Shown in pieces: positions 8,071 through 54,422 of a stretch of DNA of 64,000 nucleotides; the first letter of the stretch is position 1, and the number at the start of each line of letters is the position of its first letter. Under the pieces are notes generated by a model. The model saw only the letters and a list, made by a program, of their open reading frames with translations. It was not told the origin of the DNA and ran no database searches. Source of the DNA: Salinispira sp. (lineage in GTDB: Bacteria; Spirochaetota; Spirochaetia; DSM-27196; Salinispiraceae). The stretch spans positions 288,001-352,000 of the forward strand of contig OZ271918.1 of the NCBI GenBank assembly GCA_965602015.1. Reading direction: 5' to 3'. The translations under genes and the position numbers were made by a program.

Positions 8071-8119
8071 GTATCGTATTCTGACCTGATTTACGCCCTC
8101 TTGCAATGACGCGATGGTA

Positions 8120-8264
8120 GTGCCCCCAAAACAGCTGATTTGTGCGGTGTAACTCTTTGTGTGAAAATAAAAAAGTGGAGTTTTATCAAGGGCTTCAATG
8201 GATGACAGATAAATTACATCATGAAAAGGGATTACGCTGTTTAAATCAGCTGTTTTGGGGGCAC
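8120..8264. repeat. Inverted-repeat doublet 1 (MITE/REPIN-like, 145 bp)
   Basis: GTGCCCCCAAAACAGCTGAT at 8120-8139 and its reverse complement at 8245-8264; 105-bp AT-rich interior; TA on both flanks. Confidence 0.92.
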
Positions 8265-8302
8265 TACAAACTGCTTTACAGCCGGCGCCCTCAGGCCATA
8301 GG

Positions 8303-13418: not shown

Positions 13419-13452
13419 ACCTCTGCAGAAAACCTATGGTGGGCGAAATATA

Positions 13453-13598
13453 GTGCCCCCAAAACAGCTGATTTAAACTCCCTAATTATTGCTCTTGCAA
13501 AAATGTACAAGCGAACCAACATATGAACGTTCGGCTCATTACATTATTTCTTTACATGATAGTATTTGCACCATCCCCATCAGCTGTTTTGGGGGCAC
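13453..13598. repeat. Inverted-repeat doublet 2 (MITE/REPIN-like, 146 bp)
   Basis: Same 20-bp ends at 13453-13472 and 13579-13598; 106-bp interior; TA on both flanks. Confidence 0.92.
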
Positions 13599-13635
13599 TA
13601 AGTAAAGTCTAAGCTATTGAAATAAGTTTTGACCA

Positions 13636-19912: not shown

Positions 19913-20745
19913 ATAACCGCCTGTTTCAAACATTAACGATTGCTTTTTTTCTGGCAGTTGTGCTATCTGCCAGCCTCTGGGCCGGCGGCGAAGCCGAACT
20001 GTGGGACCGCTGGATTCTTTCAGATGAGTCCAGCGAAGAAGTGCTTGATCACGGCCCTTGGGGAGATTTCCTCAGCAAGTATCGCTATGTCGGTGAAAAT
20101 GGGGTGGCGCTCATTCGATATGATGAAGTAAGCGCAGATGATCTCAGAAGCCTCGATACCTATGTAGATTATTTACAAGCTGTGGAGGTTGATACCCTCA
20201 ATTCCCGTGAACAATACGCATTTTGGGTGAATCTCTACAACGCGGCGACTATACAGTTGATACTCAGGGAATACCCCGTAACAAGCATCCGCCGAATCTC
20301 CGGGGCCCGAATTACCAGTCCTGGTCCATGGGATCTAAAGCTGCTGCAGGTTGCCGGGGAAGAACTCAGCCTCGACGATATCGAACACCGGATCCTGCGT
20401 CCCCGCTGGAAGGATCCACGAGTGCATTTCGTCGTAAACTGCGCAAGCATCGGATGTCCTGATGTCCCTCCCGTCCCCCTGACCGCTGAAAATCAAGACC
20501 GTTTGATGGAAGAAGGTGCTCGGATATACCTCAACCATCCGCGAGGTATCAAGGCTGACGGCAGGCGGCTTGTCATTAGCTCGATCTTCGATTGGTTTTC
20601 TGTAGATTTTGGTGAGAACGAGGCTGATATTCTGGATTTCATCGATGAATACCGCGATGTCGATCAGCTATTATCCGGTATTGGGAGAAGTCGGGAGAAT
20701 GTTGCTATCCGTTATGATTACGACTGGTCATTGAATTATGAATGA
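19909..20745 (+). CDS. DUF547 domain secreted protein
   Basis: Signal peptide; AFWVNLYNA.T, SLDDIEHRILR, DPRVHFVVNCASIGCP, YDWSLN. Confidence 0.9.
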   Translation: MNNRLFQTLTIAFFLAVVLSASLWAGGEAELWDRWILSDESSEEVLDHGPWGDFLSKYRYVGENGVALIRYDEVSADDLRSLDTYVDYLQAVEVDTLNSREQYAFWVNLYNAATIQLILREYPVTSIRRISGARITSPGPWDLKLLQVAGEELSLDDIEHRILRPRWKDPRVHFVVNCASIGCPDVPPVPLTAENQDRLMEEGARIYLNHPRGIKADGRRLVISSIFDWFSVDFGENEADILDFIDEYRDVDQLLSGIGRSRENVAIRYDYDWSLNYE

Positions 20746-20746
20746 A

Positions 20747-21996
20747 GTGTCCCCAAAACAGCTGATCGAATCAACATAACTCTTTTGCCAGTAGTCTTCT
20801 ATGACACGATTACCAGTTCATAGGAGATTAGCATGGCATTAATCCCTCGTTTCTGTCCGTACTCGGACTGTTCTCAGCATCATCGCGACAGAGAATCAAG
20901 CCGGTGCTGGTTTGTCCGAAACGGCCACTATCACTGCCGCCGCCTCGGTTCTTCCCAGCGCTATCGCTGCAAGCATTGCCGTCGATACTTCTGCGAAAGC
21001 GCGTTCCACCTCGATTATCGCGCACATCATCGCCTCGATTACCGGCGCATCTTCTCTTCAATCAACTCGGCCTCCGGCATTCGCGATATTGCCCGGGAGT
21101 TTTATGTCACCGACAAGGTCATTCTCAATCGGCTGAGCCGATTGTCCCGTCAGGCAATCGCTGCCATGGCCCAGTTATCGAATGATCATACAATCGATGA
21201 GGATATTGCCGTTGATGGGTTTGAAAGCTTTGTGTACAGCCAATACTGGCCAAACAATTTCACTCTCGCGGTAGGTTCCGACAGCCAGGTTGTCTATGCG
21301 TGCGACTATGCACAGATGCGGCGCAAAGGGCGGATGACCCCCGCACAAAAGCGCCGGCGCGATGAGCTCAATCGCCGGTATCCTATTGCAGGGGGACAAA
21401 TTGCGCGATCTTTCCGGGATGTGATAAACACCATTCTTCCCCGGTGGAAGGCTTATTCATCTAAGAAGCCATGCTATCTCTTGAGCGATGAAAAACTCGA
21501 ATACCGCCGTGAGCTCTGCGCTCACCGGGACTGGGCGGCGTTGGAAAATGCAGGGCGGGTTATCCATCACCGAACCTCATCGAGGGTGGTCAGGACCACT
21601 GAAAACCCGCTGTTTCCTGTGAATTACCTGGATCGGGAGATACGAAAGGATCAATCCTGTCATGTCCGCCAGAGTGTCCAATGGTCAAAATCGGTGAACA
21701 ACAGCATGGAGCGGATGATGATCTACATCGCCTATCATAACCTGCTCAAGCCGTATCGGATAAACGGACGTAACGATATCAGCCATGGTGAGGTTGCCGG
21801 GTTTGACCGAAGGCGGGTACTCACGTTGGCAAAAAGGATGTTTACACAGCGGGCCTTCGTTCATCATCTGGTGTTGGACATCAGCCAATGGAAGACCTGG
21901 CACCGGATCTGGAAGACACCGGTGAGTGCGCTGAAGATCGATCTACCCGATTATGCGGTGGCCTGAGGAGCGGGAAATCAGCTGTTTTGGGGGCAC
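20747..21996 (+). mobile_element. IS-like element (1250 bp) bounded by the 20-bp repeat as terminal inverted repeats
   Basis: Left GTGTCCCCAAAACAGCTGAT 20747-20766 (1 mismatch) and right ATCAGCTGTTTTGGGGGCAC 21977-21996 enclose one transposase-like ORF. No direct target duplication is seen; the flanks are inverted (AATGAA/TTCATT). Confidence 0.8.
20833..21966 (+). CDS. IS1-like transposase: Zn ribbon + HTH + RNase H/DDE-type domain
   Basis: CPYSDC...RNG...QRYRCKHCRRYF (InsA-like Zn ribbon), GIRDIAREFYV (HTH), IAVDGFESF, LLSDEK..Y, PVNYLDREIR, YHNLLKP. AGGAG RBS at 20822. Confidence 0.75.
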   Translation: MALIPRFCPYSDCSQHHRDRESSRCWFVRNGHYHCRRLGSSQRYRCKHCRRYFCESAFHLDYRAHHRLDYRRIFSSINSASGIRDIAREFYVTDKVILNRLSRLSRQAIAAMAQLSNDHTIDEDIAVDGFESFVYSQYWPNNFTLAVGSDSQVVYACDYAQMRRKGRMTPAQKRRRDELNRRYPIAGGQIARSFRDVINTILPRWKAYSSKKPCYLLSDEKLEYRRELCAHRDWAALENAGRVIHHRTSSRVVRTTENPLFPVNYLDREIRKDQSCHVRQSVQWSKSVNNSMERMMIYIAYHNLLKPYRINGRNDISHGEVAGFDRRRVLTLAKRMFTQRAFVHHLVLDISQWKTWHRIWKTPVSALKIDLPDYAVA

Positions 21997-22035
21997 TTCA
22001 TTGATATTCCCCGTGGAGCAATCTATTCTTAGGCT

Positions 22036-25000
22036 ATGAATCACAAATCCATCCAAAACCTGGCTGATTTTCTAAAGAATATGGTGATTCTCAGTCCATC
22101 CGCCCCCGGTGACCAGGATGCCGAAGGCTCAAAATCCGATAATGGAAACACTGTGGTGGATGACATTCAGCAGAGCAGCAATTTCCCATCTGCAGATGCA
22201 TCATCTGACCGCGTCAAGGTTGATGCCCTGGAAACGCATATCAAGACTGAACCTGGACCGCCCTGTCTTGGCGTCACCGGGAACAATCTCTCGCTTTTAG
22301 CAGAAGAAATCCGCACATCATTAGCTGAACTGCTTCCAAGTGCCGGGTTTTTGGCTTTCGATTTTCCCGCTGATGGTTTGTGGAATAGCTCGTACTTTCC
22401 GTTTCTTGATTTGCTTCAAGAGCTTTACAAGAGTCGGGATGATGTGGAGCGTATGGTGCAGCGGTATTGCTATCAACCTCAACAGGAGGTTTTTTGCTCG
22501 GTGTTGCGAGGGACTGCAATTTCCAGAACGGATCCGCTTTTTGACGTTGAGCTTGCGTTCGAACGGCAGAAATTTCAGCAGGGAATCGCTGATCTGATCC
22601 GGGCAGCCATCGGAAACACTTTGACCTTGGTGTATTTGGCTGGGGTTGAGCACATGCACCGCTCTGCGGTCGGTGTTTTTCGCCAGTTTCTTGAGGAACC
22701 GGGGAATATTAGGTTTATTTGCGGTTTTTATGATGAGCCCGATGTTCGCATCGGCACAGCGTCGGCATTTTCCTCGATCTTCGAGTCAAACATGATACCT
22801 CAAATTTCAAGGAGGTTTTCCAAGTCTCAACCGCCGCGGTCCGCTGTTGATGCTCCGTCTCTTGCGGACAAGATCGACTTACTGGAAAAGAGTTGTGCAC
22901 TTTTTGACAGCGAACTGGCTGTTCTTCAGGCTGAAGATTTGCAAATGCCCGGCTACAGCGATGATCTTCAGCTTAGGCTAGGAGCGATCGAGCAGGGCAG
23001 GCTTCAAATGATTTTGGGTAGGGTGCATCGTTTTTCCGGACAGTACCGGGCCGCCCATGATCACTATCTCCGGGCGTTCTCTATTTTCCGAAACTCCGGA
23101 GATGCTTCAGCGGAGGCGATGTGCGCTGAAAATCTCAGCCAGTGTGCATTGCTCCTTTATGATCGGCGGGATGCTGAATATTTTTGCCAATGCTTTCATG
23201 ATTATGCGATGCAGGTCCATGATTGGGACTTGATTGCCAGGGCAGAATTGCTTCGCTTTCAGCTGCAGCAGTTTCAAAATGAGTACTTCAAGGGCTACAT
23301 CGGGTTTTTACGCAAGAGACTGACAATTCTGGAACCGGCATTTGCCAAGCTCGGTATGCGCAATGCTTTGGCATACGTGCTGAGTAATGAAACGATGATC
23401 AGCTCCATGCTCAAGGCAAATGAGGGTGTGAAAGAAACCATCGATTTTTTACTCCGCGCGTTGGATATTGCTGCGGAGATCGGCAATTCTTATCGGCTTT
23501 CTCTCATTAATCACTATCTGGGCATAGGGTATCAGGCATTGGCTGAACGGGATACTGCCTCCCGTTACTATCGACAATCTATTGAACTGGCGAGAAGCCT
23601 GTCAGATGAAAAGCTCGCAAATCGCTTGAGCAATGGAGTGGGATACTTCTTTTTTTCGGCAGGTGATTTTTCTGTCGCCGCGGATTTTTACGATGAGGCG
23701 CTGCGTGGTCTGGTACGTGAACGGGATTTTGCAGAGGTTTGCAGCTCGTTGTTCAATTTCGGTAGTATCAATTTTTTTCGGCACCTGTACTCCGTTGCGA
23801 TGCCGTTTTACGAAACAATGCTGAGAATAATGGATGCATTGGAAATTGGTGATCTCCAGTATCACAGCCGGGAAATCATCTACTCGCTTATCGGAATATG
23901 TGCGATAAAAACCGGCGACATCAATAAGGGGTACCGCTTTCACCGGATGGTGCTCGCTGAATGCGAGTCGCCCTCTACATACTCGACCTTTGAGTATTAT
24001 CACTTTTTTCAGGCGGTAATGGCCCGATATGAGGGTCGGATAGCTGAATGCGAGCGGGAGCTTGAAAAGGTCATCGACATTGAGCAAAGCAAAGCGGTTG
24101 ATGAGGCCTACCTTGTTATCCGTGCGTATTTCGAGCTTGCGGACCTGTATAAATTCCAGGGGCGTACAGAAGATTGTGCGCGGACAATCTCCCTCATTAG
24201 GGAGCTGATACCTGAAGGCAGTTTTCCTGATGTTCTCATCAGCCTCGAGGCGATGGAGGCTGATTCAGGGGAAAAGGTTTTCACCCCCATCGTGCCTGGT
24301 GATATCCCCCTGGATTTTATTGTCGAACTGGCTGAACAGGAAGCTGGTTTGCGCAGACTCAATTCCCAGATGGAGCAAATGCGGCTTCTCAACGAATTTC
24401 AGGATATCCTCCGGAATTACAGCGGGTTAGGTCGATACCCGAATTCGGAAATCCGGTTCTTGGCGGCTGCCGGTGACTTTTTAATAAGATCGTCGGCTGA
24501 TGATCGCGCTGATTCTTTTCCAGGGGAATTTTGTCACGCCCTCCTCGAACAAGACTCCTCTCTGGCGGGGAAATTTGAGGGGGCCTATTATCTGTGCCGC
24601 TCCTGGAAACATCACCAGGCAGGGCAAATAATGGAAGCCCGCAGGGATCTTACTGCATCGTTTGATGCTGCAAGAAATTATCGAAACTTTGATCTGCTCT
24701 CCCAGTTCATGCGTGAAGGCGAAGCGTTTGACCTCGGCGGATCTTCCTCGGTGATAAATGAGATGGTACTACTCTGGCGCATTGCTCAGTGCCGGCCGGA
24801 CTTCCGTAGTGAATCTGGTCTGATGGATATTCCACCGCATTCCGGCTCCGGCAATGAAGGTCAGCATGATTATGATCAGTATGGTTTGCTCGAGCACATG
24901 CTGAGCTATCACGCTCTGATCGCCGCTGCTGTTAGACTCATCGCCGAAGGGAACTCCTTCGATTTCGCTGTCTTAGCGGAGTTTGATAACGGTCGTCGAT

Positions 25001-26241
25001 GTTTTTCCGAATCTCTGGTCCCCCGTTCAAGGCGTAGTGAAGCCTATGACGCCATGGTCTTACGATTTCTTGAGGATGTATTTGCTTCCTGGTCCCGAGG
25101 AGAGCACAGGGATAAGAGCCTGTCTGCCGAAGCGGCTACCCAACTGGGGCTAGAGCATTCAAGGATCTTTACATCCGGCAAATCCGAAGAGATATCACTC
25201 CTGCTTATTGTCGGGGGCTATCATGATGACAAAGTCTACAACCGTGAGGTTTCGCATATGATAGGCATCATGTTGGATCAACTGCTGACCGCCCTGAGCA
25301 AGGTTCGGGGCGAGATGCTTATTCTCCGACAGAACAGGGATCTCGAGGCTGCGGTGAAGGAACGAACGAATGAGCTCTCACAAAGTCTCGCTCACATTGA
25401 GCGGCAAAAAGCTCAGATCCAGAGCTATGCCGCCCGGCTTGAAGAAACTGTTGAGGAGCGGGGACGGGAACTGGTTAATTCCGAACGCAGGGCGACCCTT
25501 GCTCAGCTGGTGGCGAATTTGTCGCATGAAATCAGCAGTCCTCTCGGCAACGTTATATTGCTAAACAGCGCTTCAAAGACTGAACTATCGGACATTCTGA
25601 GCGCTGCGGAGGACGGCACGCTGAGTCTGAATGGGCTGCAGGACTTTCTTAAACGCAGCGTCGATTCCTCATCTATTATCGCCGACAACGTGAACCGGGT
25701 GCTTGACCTGGTGTCGAGCTATCGGAAGGTGGCTCATGATCAGGCAAAACCGGAAATAGAAGTTGTAGAGCTTCGGGAATATCTGCAATCAGTTTTTATC
25801 CTGTTCAAACCCCGGCTCACCCGCGCCGGCGTTGAATTAACGCTCGAATGCCCGGACAATCTCACCATCCGCAGCTATCCCGGAATTCTGTCCCAAATAA
25901 TGAGCAATCTGTTGATCAATGCCCTCACCCATGCCTTCACGGATGATCAGCGGCAGAAGCACATTCAACTTTCTGTTTCCTCACGAACCGACGTTCTGGA
26001 ACTGAGATTTACCGACAACGGTATGGGGATGGACTCCCAGATCCGCAGCAGGATTTTTGAAGCCTACTTCACCACCAACAAAACCGGGGGAGGAACGGGT
26101 TTGGGATTGCATATCATTCAAAGCCTCGTGGAAAAAAACCTCAAGGGCAGCATCAGCTGTTCGAGCGCCCCTGGTGACGGAACAGAGTTTTTTATCAGCC
26201 TTCCTCTTTCCCTTGATGATCCGAACGGCCCTTCTTCCTAA
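22036..26241 (+). CDS. Large cytoplasmic TPR-repeat sensor histidine kinase
   Basis: TPR-like helices (LGIGYQAL...ASRYYRQSIELA; NGVGYFFF..GDF..AADFYDEAL), coiled coil, H-box LVANLSHEISSPLG, NLLINA..HAF, DNGMGM, GGTGLGL. Confidence 0.88.
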   Translation: MNHKSIQNLADFLKNMVILSPSAPGDQDAEGSKSDNGNTVVDDIQQSSNFPSADASSDRVKVDALETHIKTEPGPPCLGVTGNNLSLLAEEIRTSLAELLPSAGFLAFDFPADGLWNSSYFPFLDLLQELYKSRDDVERMVQRYCYQPQQEVFCSVLRGTAISRTDPLFDVELAFERQKFQQGIADLIRAAIGNTLTLVYLAGVEHMHRSAVGVFRQFLEEPGNIRFICGFYDEPDVRIGTASAFSSIFESNMIPQISRRFSKSQPPRSAVDAPSLADKIDLLEKSCALFDSELAVLQAEDLQMPGYSDDLQLRLGAIEQGRLQMILGRVHRFSGQYRAAHDHYLRAFSIFRNSGDASAEAMCAENLSQCALLLYDRRDAEYFCQCFHDYAMQVHDWDLIARAELLRFQLQQFQNEYFKGYIGFLRKRLTILEPAFAKLGMRNALAYVLSNETMISSMLKANEGVKETIDFLLRALDIAAEIGNSYRLSLINHYLGIGYQALAERDTASRYYRQSIELARSLSDEKLANRLSNGVGYFFFSAGDFSVAADFYDEALRGLVRERDFAEVCSSLFNFGSINFFRHLYSVAMPFYETMLRIMDALEIGDLQYHSREIIYSLIGICAIKTGDINKGYRFHRMVLAECESPSTYSTFEYYHFFQAVMARYEGRIAECERELEKVIDIEQSKAVDEAYLVIRAYFELADLYKFQGRTEDCARTISLIRELIPEGSFPDVLISLEAMEADSGEKVFTPIVPGDIPLDFIVELAEQEAGLRRLNSQMEQMRLLNEFQDILRNYSGLGRYPNSEIRFLAAAGDFLIRSSADDRADSFPGEFCHALLEQDSSLAGKFEGAYYLCRSWKHHQAGQIMEARRDLTASFDAARNYRNFDLLSQFMREGEAFDLGGSSSVINEMVLLWRIAQCRPDFRSESGLMDIPPHSGSGNEGQHDYDQYGLLEHMLSYHALIAAAVRLIAEGNSFDFAVLAEFDNGRRCFSESLVPRSRRSEAYDAMVLRFLEDVFASWSRGEHRDKSLSAEAATQLGLEHSRIFTSGKSEEISLLLIVGGYHDDKVYNREVSHMIGIMLDQLLTALSKVRGEMLILRQNRDLEAAVKERTNELSQSLAHIERQKAQIQSYAARLEETVEERGRELVNSERRATLAQLVANLSHEISSPLGNVILLNSASKTELSDILSAAEDGTLSLNGLQDFLKRSVDSSSIIADNVNRVLDLVSSYRKVAHDQAKPEIEVVELREYLQSVFILFKPRLTRAGVELTLECPDNLTIRSYPGILSQIMSNLLINALTHAFTDDQRQKHIQLSVSSRTDVLELRFTDNGMGMDSQIRSRIFEAYFTTNKTGGGTGLGLHIIQSLVEKNLKGSISCSSAPGDGTEFFISLPLSLDDPNGPSS

Positions 26242-34086: not shown

Positions 34087-34096
34087 CAAATACGAA

Positions 34097-34116
34097 GTGC
34101 CCCCAAAACAGCTGAT
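34097..34116 (+). repeat. Solo copy of the 20-bp repeat
   Basis: Exact GTGCCCCCAAAACAGCTGAT followed by TTAAA; no partner ~145 bp away. Confidence 0.9.
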
Positions 34117-34196
34117 TTAAATCTTCTTCGCAACTAAATTCCAGCCTTCCGGGCTGGGCCGGGGGAGCTCCGTGGACTGCCCCCGGTAAGCCTTCT

Positions 34197-36320: not shown

Positions 36321-36326
36321 TATTCA

Positions 36327-36471
36327 GTGCCCCCAAAACAGCTGATTTTCAGGCTGTAAAATGCTCTATGATAAGCAGAAACGGGCATTTTTCTCGAGCG
36401 CGCGATTGACGGCGCTTAATTCCAATCCTGTGAACAGATTACATGATTTAAATCAGCTGTTTTGGGGGCAC
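36327..36471. repeat. Inverted-repeat doublet 3 (MITE/REPIN-like, 145 bp)
   Basis: Same 20-bp ends at 36327-36346 and 36452-36471; 105-bp interior. Confidence 0.92.
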
Positions 36472-36486
36472 TACTAAAAATACCCA

Positions 36487-43310: not shown

Positions 43311-43394
43311 CTACCTGCTACTATGACCTCAGCCAGTCATTCCGTCAAATTCGGGATGTAGTTTTCGGGGCATATCTGAAAGCGGTGCCTCCCC

Positions 43395-43547
43395 GCAAGA
43401 GTTTTCAATGTTCTATTACAAAAATTCTGCAAATCGGTTTTGTCCGAGTCATATCTCCGCCATCCACGTGGCATGAAAATGTCTTTCCAGGGGTGTCGCA
43501 ATCACTTTGCACAGCCTCGTATTCGCGCTGTAGCCCCAAAAACGCGC
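43395..43547 (-). ncRNA. Putative bridge/seek RNA of the IS110/IS1111 element
   Basis: Non-coding region between the transposase stop and the right IR. It holds target-matching segments (43533-43543, 43503-43507) and donor-junction-matching segments (43469-43478, 43449-43456), with an ACAGC/GCUGU stem between the target segments. Boundaries are approximate. Confidence 0.72.
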
Positions 43548-44600
43548 TTACCCCTGTCTGGACAAACCCGCTAATGCAGGATCTTTGTAATGCTGTTCTT
43601 TCTGCAATATCCAAAATATTGCTTCTGCTAAGTGCCGTGCCACAGAGATTATAGCAACCTTATGATTTCGTTTAGTACGAACTCTCTTGTAGAGTTTTAC
43701 CGTATGTCGGTTCGCCCAATTTCTTTGATTAAGACAGGTTACATTAGCTGCTTCAGTAAGTGCCCACTTCAAGTATCGATTACATGCTTTCGATGTTCGA
43801 CCATAATGAGTTTTACCTCCGCTCGAGTGAACGCGCGGCGTTGTACCACAGTATGATGCAAAATGTTCAGCGGTCTTAAAGCGATGTATGTCTCCAATTT
43901 CATGCACAATGACTGCGCTGAGAATAAATCCGATCCCGGGAATGGATTTCACCAACTTCATTTCAGCATTTTCATCAAACGCTTCATGCATTCGTTGTTC
44001 GCAGTCGGTGATAGATTGCTTAATAAACGCGAGATTATCGAGCTTGAGTTTCATCATGGTGCGGGTATGCTCGGGGAGTTTTGGCATTACCTTCTTCATG
44101 GCTTCTGTACCTGCTTTTCCGAACAGATCGCTCACATCATTGAATCGAAACCCATATTTCTCGAACCCGGCATGAATTTGGTTCTTTTCACGTATCAACT
44201 CCTGAACGAACTGCATCCGGGTTCGATAGAGTTCTCGTTTATCACGTAATTCTCCTGGTGGAATCCACACAGTAGGCAGTGTGCCTGTTTTTTGAAGTTT
44301 ATTGAGACCTTCAGCATCGAGTTTGTCAGTTTTGTTAAACATGGCCATCATCAATTTTGACTTACCGGCATGAACCAGCAAGGGGTTCATGCCGGCCTCC
44401 TCAATCTCATCCACGATCCAGTACCAACTTCCGATCGTTTCAAGTGCGACTTCCTGTCCCGGCTCAAATTGTTGGAGGAAATCACGAATACACCCGTGAG
44501 AATGTTCTATGCGCTGTGAGGATTTCCTTCCTTTTTCGTCCTCAATTGCAGCCACGGTATACCGTTTATGGCTGTCGAGGGATATAATAATACTACTCAT
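43548..44600 (-). CDS. IS110-family DEDD recombinase/transposase
   Basis: ISLDSHK, VALETIG, KTDKLDA (DEDD RuvC-like); SIPGIG....A.I..EIGDI.RF....FASYCG.TP..HSSGGK (Tnp20 domain); GGAGGAGG RBS. Confidence 0.95.
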   Translation of the reverse strand: MSSIIISLDSHKRYTVAAIEDEKGRKSSQRIEHSHGCIRDFLQQFEPGQEVALETIGSWYWIVDEIEEAGMNPLLVHAGKSKLMMAMFNKTDKLDAEGLNKLQKTGTLPTVWIPPGELRDKRELYRTRMQFVQELIREKNQIHAGFEKYGFRFNDVSDLFGKAGTEAMKKVMPKLPEHTRTMMKLKLDNLAFIKQSITDCEQRMHEAFDENAEMKLVKSIPGIGFILSAVIVHEIGDIHRFKTAEHFASYCGTTPRVHSSGGKTHYGRTSKACNRYLKWALTEAANVTCLNQRNWANRHTVKLYKRVRTKRNHKVAIISVARHLAEAIFWILQKEQHYKDPALAGLSRQG

Positions 44601-44707
44601 TTGGTTGTCCTCCTCCGGTATTTAATATAGACCCTGACTGGCAGGATCTCGGGGGAGGCACCGCTTTCATACCATCACTATCTAATTTTATATTCGCACG
44701 GGCTTTA

Positions 44708-54273: not shown

Positions 54274-54293
54274 CAGGCTTAGTGTAGATTGAA

Positions 54294-54313
54294 CTGCCCC
54301 GAAAACAGCTGAT
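54294..54313 (+). repeat. Degenerate solo copy of the 20-bp repeat
   Basis: CTGCCCCGAAAACAGCTGAT, 18/20 match to the consensus. Confidence 0.82.
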
Positions 54314-54422
54314 TTTCTGGTGGTAAAACACCATGCGAGAATGATAAACCTAGTTTTTCGACTTTACGCGCAGTAGACTGGGTGTAATTCCTATCTCAAT
54401 TGCCGGTATCTACATATTGAAC

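Follow-up and report, generated by a model that had tools for sequence, protein, structure and literature searches.

A probable spirochaete insertion sequence group with an IS1-like protein layout, 9-bp target duplications and N-x-x-D in place of the IS1 E-x-x-N motif

The window analysed here (the whole stretch of 64,000 nucleotides, to which all positions refer unless a genome is named) carries one copy of what is, at a probability of roughly 75%, an autonomous insertion sequence (IS) that joins an IS1-like protein layout and 9-bp target duplications to an N-x-x-D transposase, the latter likely using D128, D219 and D267 as metal carboxylates. Judged by sequence comparison and a predicted structure, the group to which it belongs is best read as IS1-derived and active. 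The element works like IS1, but it is a variant beside that family and not a member of it, and is filed outside IS1 because it departs from the family in its triad, its ends and its scores against the family model.

The element in the window

The element spans 20743..22000 on the + strand (1258 bp) and is one of 12 full copies in the genome under study (G000; 3.87 Mb, single contig), its boundary being taken from the duplication register, 5 bp outside the conserved TG. The left terminal inverted repeat (20743..20766, +) opens with the 5-bp tip TGAAG, after which the conserved core begins with TG at 20748, while the right terminal inverted repeat (21977..22000, - strand) has a core running to CA at 21995, followed by its own 5-bp tip. 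The inverted repeat arms at 20737-20766 and 21977-22006 are 93% complementary and enclose the transposase ORF (20833..21966, +; 377 aa), which combines a Zn finger and HTH with a predicted RNase H core. The initial annotation had described this same layout, a 377-aa ORF with Zn ribbon, HTH and acidic motifs between inverted copies of the repeat, and C8, C13, C46, C49, D128 and D219 proved to be conserved. Its further claim, that the flanks are inverted and not direct repeats, holds only in part. At the family register the left (20734..20742, +) and right (22001..22009, +) flanking 9-mers match at 0/9 bases, and the window copy is thus without a duplication, but the inverted pair TGAAG/CTTCA is the element's own terminal 5 bp. 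With the IS1-like boundary given by the 9-bp register the element is 20743-22000, and the inverted flanks noted earlier are therefore mainly its tips.

The stop codon of the upstream DUF547 gene is the TGA of the left tip TGAAG (20743-20745), and the DUF547 protein in three relatives ends 1-2 residues past YDW(S/T)LN. Directly downstream of the element, positions 22036-26241 encode a TPR-containing histidine kinase of 1401 aa. An Rfam search of the window gave 0 matches, and a promoter scan found 1 promoter against 2.2 expected.

Transposase domains and relationship to known families

IS1 has been described as combining a Zn finger, HTH, DDE and 8-9-bp duplications, with a frameshifted insA/insB product of 232 aa (PMC12428005). 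The N-terminus of the window protein aligns with E. coli InsA (hhalign 95%, E 3e-8), its four Cys (C8, C13, C46, C49) are kept in 149-150 of 150 aligned homologues, and the group resembles E. coli IS1A in this InsA-type Zn finger and HTH and in the register of its second Asp and helix to InsB. Unlike IS1, it encodes a single 377-aa ORF in a longer element (1258 bp versus 768 bp), with an inserted RRKGRMT helix and a C-terminal extension; the ORF is single in all 12 copies and contains no A6C, giving no sign of an insA/insB-type frameshift layout. Some IS1 members are themselves single-ORF and not -1 frameshift fusions of insA and insB.

The initial annotation had suggested comparing the protein with IS1, IS1595 and IS6 transposases by profile and by predicted structure. 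A Pfam search of the window protein returned no real match, and the NCBIfam IS1 transposase model (NF033558) scored 35.5 bits against a cut-off of 100, covering residues 40-154 only. Among 59 members of the group, the NCBIfam IS1 model was touched by 52 at E 0.01 or better, DDE_Tnp_IS1595 (PF12762) by none at that threshold, and DDE_Tnp_IS240 (PF13610) weakly by one (E 0.005); no Pfam or NCBIfam model exceeded its own cut-off for the group protein. IS1595/Merlin elements, which are described as having a single ORF, an N-terminal Zn finger and 8-9-bp duplications, with the DDE_Tnp_IS1595 domain as diagnostic (PMC8101967), share with the group the single ORF, the Zn finger, the size of the duplications and a profile alignment (87%, E 4e-6) that places D128 and D219 on the first two Asp. 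However, the group lacks PF12762 matches (0/59), its catalytic helix finds no register with IS1595, and those sampled IS1595 proteins that have the motif read N-x-x-E. For IS6, proteins of mostly 220-250 aa, a canonical DDE and duplications of 8 bp are reported (PMC7986276). The language-model neighbours of the window protein include DDE_Tnp_IS240 as well as DDE_Tnp_IS1 clusters (0.91-0.92; core 0.85-0.87), a likeness to IS6/IS26 that serves as a lead only, whereas the group lacks the helix Glu of IS6 and barely touches PF13610 (1/59).

A search of PDB sequences gave no match below E 0.28, while the AlphaFold2 model (pLDDT 95.2) has strands at 125-134, 140-148, 154-161, 214-219 and 243-248 and a helix at 261-273. 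In this model D128 lies on strand 1, D219 ends strand 4, and N264, D267 and R271 lie on the helix that follows. Its top structural matches were integrases and DDE transposases (Foldseek E 5e-5), and VIA-align gave Z 11.1 both for RSV integrase (rmsd 3.5, 154 aligned) and for ISCth4 (rmsd 7.2, 237 aligned). The protein core is accordingly predicted to adopt the integrase/RNase H fold. This predicted fold, together with the N/D for E/N exchange in 268 homologues and the lack of a model over cut-off, bears out the suggestion of a divergent IS with altered chemistry.

A profile search of 1.84 billion representatives (a 50%-identity library) recovered 570 sequences at E 1e-30, 1468 at 1e-10 and 2517 at 1e-3, the best 150 of which form the alignment used here. 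In addition, the distant match P0117 (31-34% identical) led to a sister clade of at least 4655 clusters among 8000 scored. The RefSeq members are annotated as 'hypothetical protein', and 'IS1 family transposase' is the JGI label of a small number of database entries; no description of the group was found in the literature searched, most subscription papers being outside its reach.

The catalytic helix

Where IS1 reads E-x-x-N-x3-R, the group reads N-x-x-D-x3-R, N264 being present in 267 of 268 homologues and D267 in 264, with E at position 264 in none of them, so that the canonical D-D-E triad is absent. Within the first 150 homologues D128 is kept in 148, D219 in 149, N264 in 149, D267 in 148 and R271 in 149; among the 118 top matches of the sister clade, D128, D219, N264 and R271 are kept in all 118 and D267 in 116, with E in the other two. 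Three of the four exceptions at position 267 are E, and the position therefore holds an acid in all but one of the 268 sequences. When the InsB helix segment was slid along this region in 25 gapless registers, a single one scored positively (10.8; next best -1.5), placing E126 on N264 and N129 on D267, and the alignment made by eye in the initial annotation (N at the catalytic E, D at the conserved N) is this only positive register. N264 accordingly takes the position of InsB E126, 7 residues ahead of the conserved Arg, and in the same helix-register alignment the second Asp of InsB falls on D219. The first Asp has no gapless register with InsB, and D128 is supported instead by its conservation, by the model and by the IS1595 profile alignment; overall, the catalytic half matches InsB weakly (hhalign 2.6%).

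One set of spirochaete loci was found with a pattern that contains N and D and is hence uninformative on variation at these positions. The 80 metagenome loci of the sister clade were found with patterns that exclude N264 and D267, and N-D-R is present in 72 of their 75 parsed ORFs. Fifteen loci have perfect duplications, and all 11 of these with a parsed ORF read C-C-D-D-N-D-R. One homologue has the reverse D/N order and lacks both Asp, and is probably dead.

Terminal sequences and target duplications

An offset scan returned a single register, in which 9 bp are repeated 5 bp outside the conserved TG. In G000 this register stands out against shuffled pairings (z 6.6), with 10 of 45 elements matching at 7/9 or better against a null mean of 0.6, and with 0/45 perfect 9-bp duplications and one perfect 8-bp case. 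From 80 GTDB loci of the spirochaete clade, 58 had enough flank and 43 of these a detectable inverted repeat; a perfect 9-bp duplication was present in 5/43, and no other length from 3 to 30 gave any. Among relatives, perfect duplications occur in one subfamily of G002 (2/8) and in G195 (1/12), and were absent from G014 (0/14), G194 (0/7), the other G002 subfamily (0/4) and the 20 examined of the 35 G002 doublets (0/20). In the sister clade, 52 of the 80 metagenome loci had sufficient flanking sequence; an inverted repeat was seen in 41 and an anchor in 36, and 8 of these 36 (7 distinct loci) carry perfect 9-bp duplications. The missing target duplication, which the initial annotation had treated as a mechanistic feature, is thus a property of the window copy, and the group itself makes 9-bp duplications. 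Blunt insertion, or ends at TG, was rejected, since only the 5/5 boundary with 9 bp (or an equivalent register) gives perfect repeats, and longer duplications were found neither in homologues (3-30 bp) nor in G000 (4-35 bp).

The ends likewise recall IS1, whose ends are labelled GGnnnTG. IS1A has the ends GGTGATG and GGTAATG, and is itself without a duplication; the group shares with it TG at positions 6-7, C and AA at the same offsets thereafter, and the 9-bp duplication length. The sister clade keeps the GG of IS1, with ends of the type GGTTGTG and G as the first and second base in 51 and 49 of 72 ends, while terminal GG has been lost in the spirochaete branch, whose ends read nnWASTG with the two outer bases near random in 86 ends. 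Left and right ends agree at these outer bases in 13/43 and 17/43 spirochaete elements, and they are near random even beside perfect duplications. Derivation of the tips from the current target or from a shared spacer was unsupported by the end data of homologues and relatives.

When elements were pooled (n=129), 8 had perfect duplications and 101 matched at 5/9 or less. Even so, the ends of these 101 elements (202 in all) lie next to bases like those of targets: T is found at -7 in 69% and A at -13 in 50%, compared with 21-30% at distal positions. This suggests that each end was placed by the enzyme, at different times. Degeneration, recombination and adjacent deletion are given as causes of missing duplications, the last two as frequent ones, in PMC11708052, and here the losses probably reflect recombination and adjacent deletion, plus decay. 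In the locus pairs L325/L313 and L260/L257 the left flank is common and the right flank switches at the tip, although both are metagenome assemblies and may be chimeras. A reshuffling of flanks among the G000 copies was also considered and dropped, as 11 copies gave no cross-matching duplication beyond one off-register 7-mer.

Two arrangements in G195 stand apart. At L201/L214 (G195:C1 ~1838850-1838880), a right end is followed by a perfect 9-bp duplication and a further left end, whose tip is identical to that of the copy's own left end; this single case looks like the junction of a circle or tandem, spaced by 9 bp. Across L195-L206 of the same genome, flanking 9-mers recur at different sites (14/264 end pairs at 7/9 or better versus 0-1 in distal controls), meaning either a strong target preference or flanks carried along in the lineage.

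Copy number and distribution

The 12 full copies in G000 are 95.1-97.4% identical to the window copy, all open for 377 aa, under purifying selection (pS 0.11, pN/pS 0.10) and mosaic, the four-gamete test being failed by 1220 of 2628 informative site pairs. A thirteenth, divergent member (G000:C1:2757300-2760740) is ~34% identical, has a different end sequence and is split by an element of 2.2 kb whose ORFs resemble IstA/IstB (judged IS21-like by eye) and of which there are 4 identical copies. The same copy variants recurred in contigs assembled from four runs on a single sample, with several-fold higher depth over the element and with neither a circle junction nor an empty-site joint; this sample is probably the one from which the genome came, and hence not independent. 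No empty sites were found within G000, and at orthologous sites in relatives the sequence was too diverged to resolve one.

Homologues are present in 22 of 41 close relatives (G000 counted), often in multiple copies. At E 1e-20, five of 301 genomes sampled phylum-wide have homologues. The distribution is patchy, and the named loci are mostly Spirochaetia. The same-genus genome G001 carries the same repeat (89 occurrences), yet among the 28 repeat loci examined there, 24 have a flank that maps to G000 and 0/24 have a repeat at that junction, the nearest lying 1.5 kb away. Of the IS copies examined in G001, G002 and G014, L027 maps ~100 bp from a G000 hairpin and the others >1 kb from any repeat. 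Near-identical copies occupy different sites in G039 (99.6-99.8%) and at L281/L282, the relatives carry repeat sequences of their own, and the DUF547 gene has other neighbours in 4 relatives. The initial annotation had offered a domesticated, vertically inherited protein as one reading, to be recognised by single copy and synteny. Neither was found, and domestication is rejected in view of the 12 copies, by sites unshared with a same-genus genome that carries the same repeat, and by the differing DUF547 neighbours. Searches of plasmid, phage and viral collections gave no match.

In G001 (L002) and G002 (L031), one and the same terminator-like hairpin bears a different element of the group at its T-tail, and the counterpart site in G000 (near C1:2096412) is empty; this common site suggests hot spots.

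Doublets, solo ends and an IS110-family guest

The 21-bp repeat core occurs 130 times in G000 at <=4 mismatches, forming 47 facing pairs and 36 solo ends. Two of the 47 pairs were self-overlap artefacts and were dropped, leaving 30 doublets, 4 hairpins and 11 IS copies, to which the twelfth IS copy, with one base missing from its left end, was added later. Three doublets lie in the window, at 8116..8268 (153 bp, with the same ends as the IS), 13449..13602 (154 bp) and 36323..36475 (153 bp), all without assigned strand and all likely MITEs, together with two partnerless solo ends at 34093..34118 (+) and 54290..54315 (+). Across the genome, 27 of the 30 doublets measure 152-154 bp. Median identity between doublet interiors is only 45%, although length and cores are preserved. 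In none of the 34 doublets and hairpins do both ends lie in a long ORF. The doublets share the ends and the 9-bp register of the IS, and no IS1 model over its cut-off and no IS1595 match was found elsewhere in G000, for which reason the 377-aa protein is their likely mobiliser, as had been proposed from the sequence at the outset. The initial annotation had asked whether homologues co-occur with fixed-spacing repeat families of their own. Relatives have doublets of their own: G002 has 35 pairs, 9 at a spacing of 113 and 26 at 123-126, and G194 has 60 pairs below 700 bp among the 99 left ends listed, 16 of them at 108-109 bp and 26 at 215-221 bp. G195 has mostly solo ends. Helical AA/TT periodicity in the doublet interiors was not significant (p 0.15), and helical-turn length steps were weak, the short class of G002 being one lineage (70-88% identical).

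The four hairpins (G000:C1:201919, 400647, 2356764 and 2681483) are head-to-head, 42-47 bp long and consist of two ends only; two of them keep 7-8 of 9 duplication bases. An IS110-family element (NF033542 226.8 bits; 1305 bp, with sub-terminal inverted repeats) is present at 43371-44675 (-) of the window and at nine other genome sites. All 10 insertions follow AGTG. Seven lie within the end repeat of the IS described here, the one in the window falls in a partial repeat, and the remaining two are in a related end repeat and in a tandem, respectively; in three IS copies the IS110 element parts the tip from the binding core. Such insertion into end repeats is shared with IS110 elements that target REPs, and the combination of many intergenic doublets with a cognate transposase likewise recalls REP/REPIN-RAYT systems. 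RAYTs, however, are HUH/Y1 enzymes and usually single-copy, whereas the protein described here is predicted to fold as an integrase and is present in 12 copies, each enclosed by its own ends.

Proposed mechanism and competing explanations

In the mechanism that we favour, the Zn finger and HTH would bind the ~20-bp core inside each end, and the catalytic core would nick 5 bp outside the core TG, a position that in the spirochaete branch would be set by distance more than by terminal sequence. Both 3' ends would then attack an AT-rich intergenic target 9 bp apart, with D128, D219 and most likely D267 carrying out two-metal nicking and strand transfer, as conservation and the modelled fold suggest. 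Acting in trans, the same enzyme would also mobilise the ~153-bp doublets. One flank would subsequently be replaced through one-ended events (adjacent deletion) and through recombination among copies, erasing most duplications, including that of the window copy. With perfect 9-bp duplications at 0/45 in G000, recent movement in this genome is at most a possibility.

D267, in effect moved from position 264, is somewhat favoured as the third metal ligand, because changes of Glu to its amide generally inactivate DDE enzymes and position 267 takes an acid in all but one sequence. The amide oxygen of N264 is a rather doubtful candidate for this role, and other arrangements account for the rest. A true D-D-N enzyme in the same mobile element, with the N264 side-chain oxygen on the second metal and D267 in a structural or second-shell role, is unlikely. 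In its favour, N264 aligns with InsB E126, stands 7 residues ahead of the conserved Arg and equals D267 in conservation; IS1595 subgroups are labelled DDN or DDH in ISfinder reviews. A DDNK label for IS1595 was not found in the literature searched. The D-D-N reading is at odds with the usual effect of Glu-to-amide changes, with the tolerance of position 267 for E and hardly anything else, as expected of a carboxylate ligand, and with the E kept by the sampled IS1595 proteins that show the motif.

Copies that have long been resident, are largely immobile and stay alike through gene conversion, with a protein that mainly binds the ~130 genomic sites for the host in a REPIN/RAYT-like manner, would agree with the lack of perfect duplications in G000, the decayed tips, the mosaic copies under purifying selection and the doublets whose interiors have diverged around constant cores and length. 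This is improbable given the G001 loci, 24 of 28 of which map a flank to G000 with no repeat at the junction, the relatives' own repeats, the near-identical copies at different sites, the perfect duplications in homologues and the patchy distribution. A catalytically dead protein, with elements moved in trans by a canonical DDE transposase, could be argued from the loss of the canonical Glu, but is highly improbable, as D128 and D219 stay conserved, the ends of each clade travel with their own protein, and no such transposase was recovered from G000 by the IS1 and IS1595 models. A prior entry for the element in ISfinder or TnCentral, whether under atypical IS1 members or as an unclassified group, and with its motif noted, is also rather unlikely: the few JGI labels and the 52 of 59 members that touch the NCBIfam IS1 model would favour such an entry, against the low, N-terminal score of the window protein, the 'hypothetical protein' entries in RefSeq and the silence of the literature within reach.

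Implications

The D-D-E/D triad is treated as fixed in integrases and transposases, and a family with an amide-acid swap and perfect duplications makes a one-turn shift of the ligand testable; if true, this would be a new active-site geometry among DDE enzymes. More tentatively, and at somewhat less than even odds, a large unnamed IS1-derived family of thousands of protein clusters may have shifted its third carboxylate by one helix turn, and its spirochaete branch may also have given up recognition of the terminal bases in favour of cutting by distance from the binding site, so that ends, fixed-length MITEs and solo ends would be able to spread and be cut again repeatedly. Members are plentiful (570 representatives at E <1e-30, and at least 4655 clusters from one sister-clade query), and since its RefSeq members are called hypothetical, IS counts in these genomes are likely too low. 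In G000, the 12 IS copies, the 30 doublets of MITE type, the 36 solo ends and the IS110 element targeting those ends can be explained as one repeat system.
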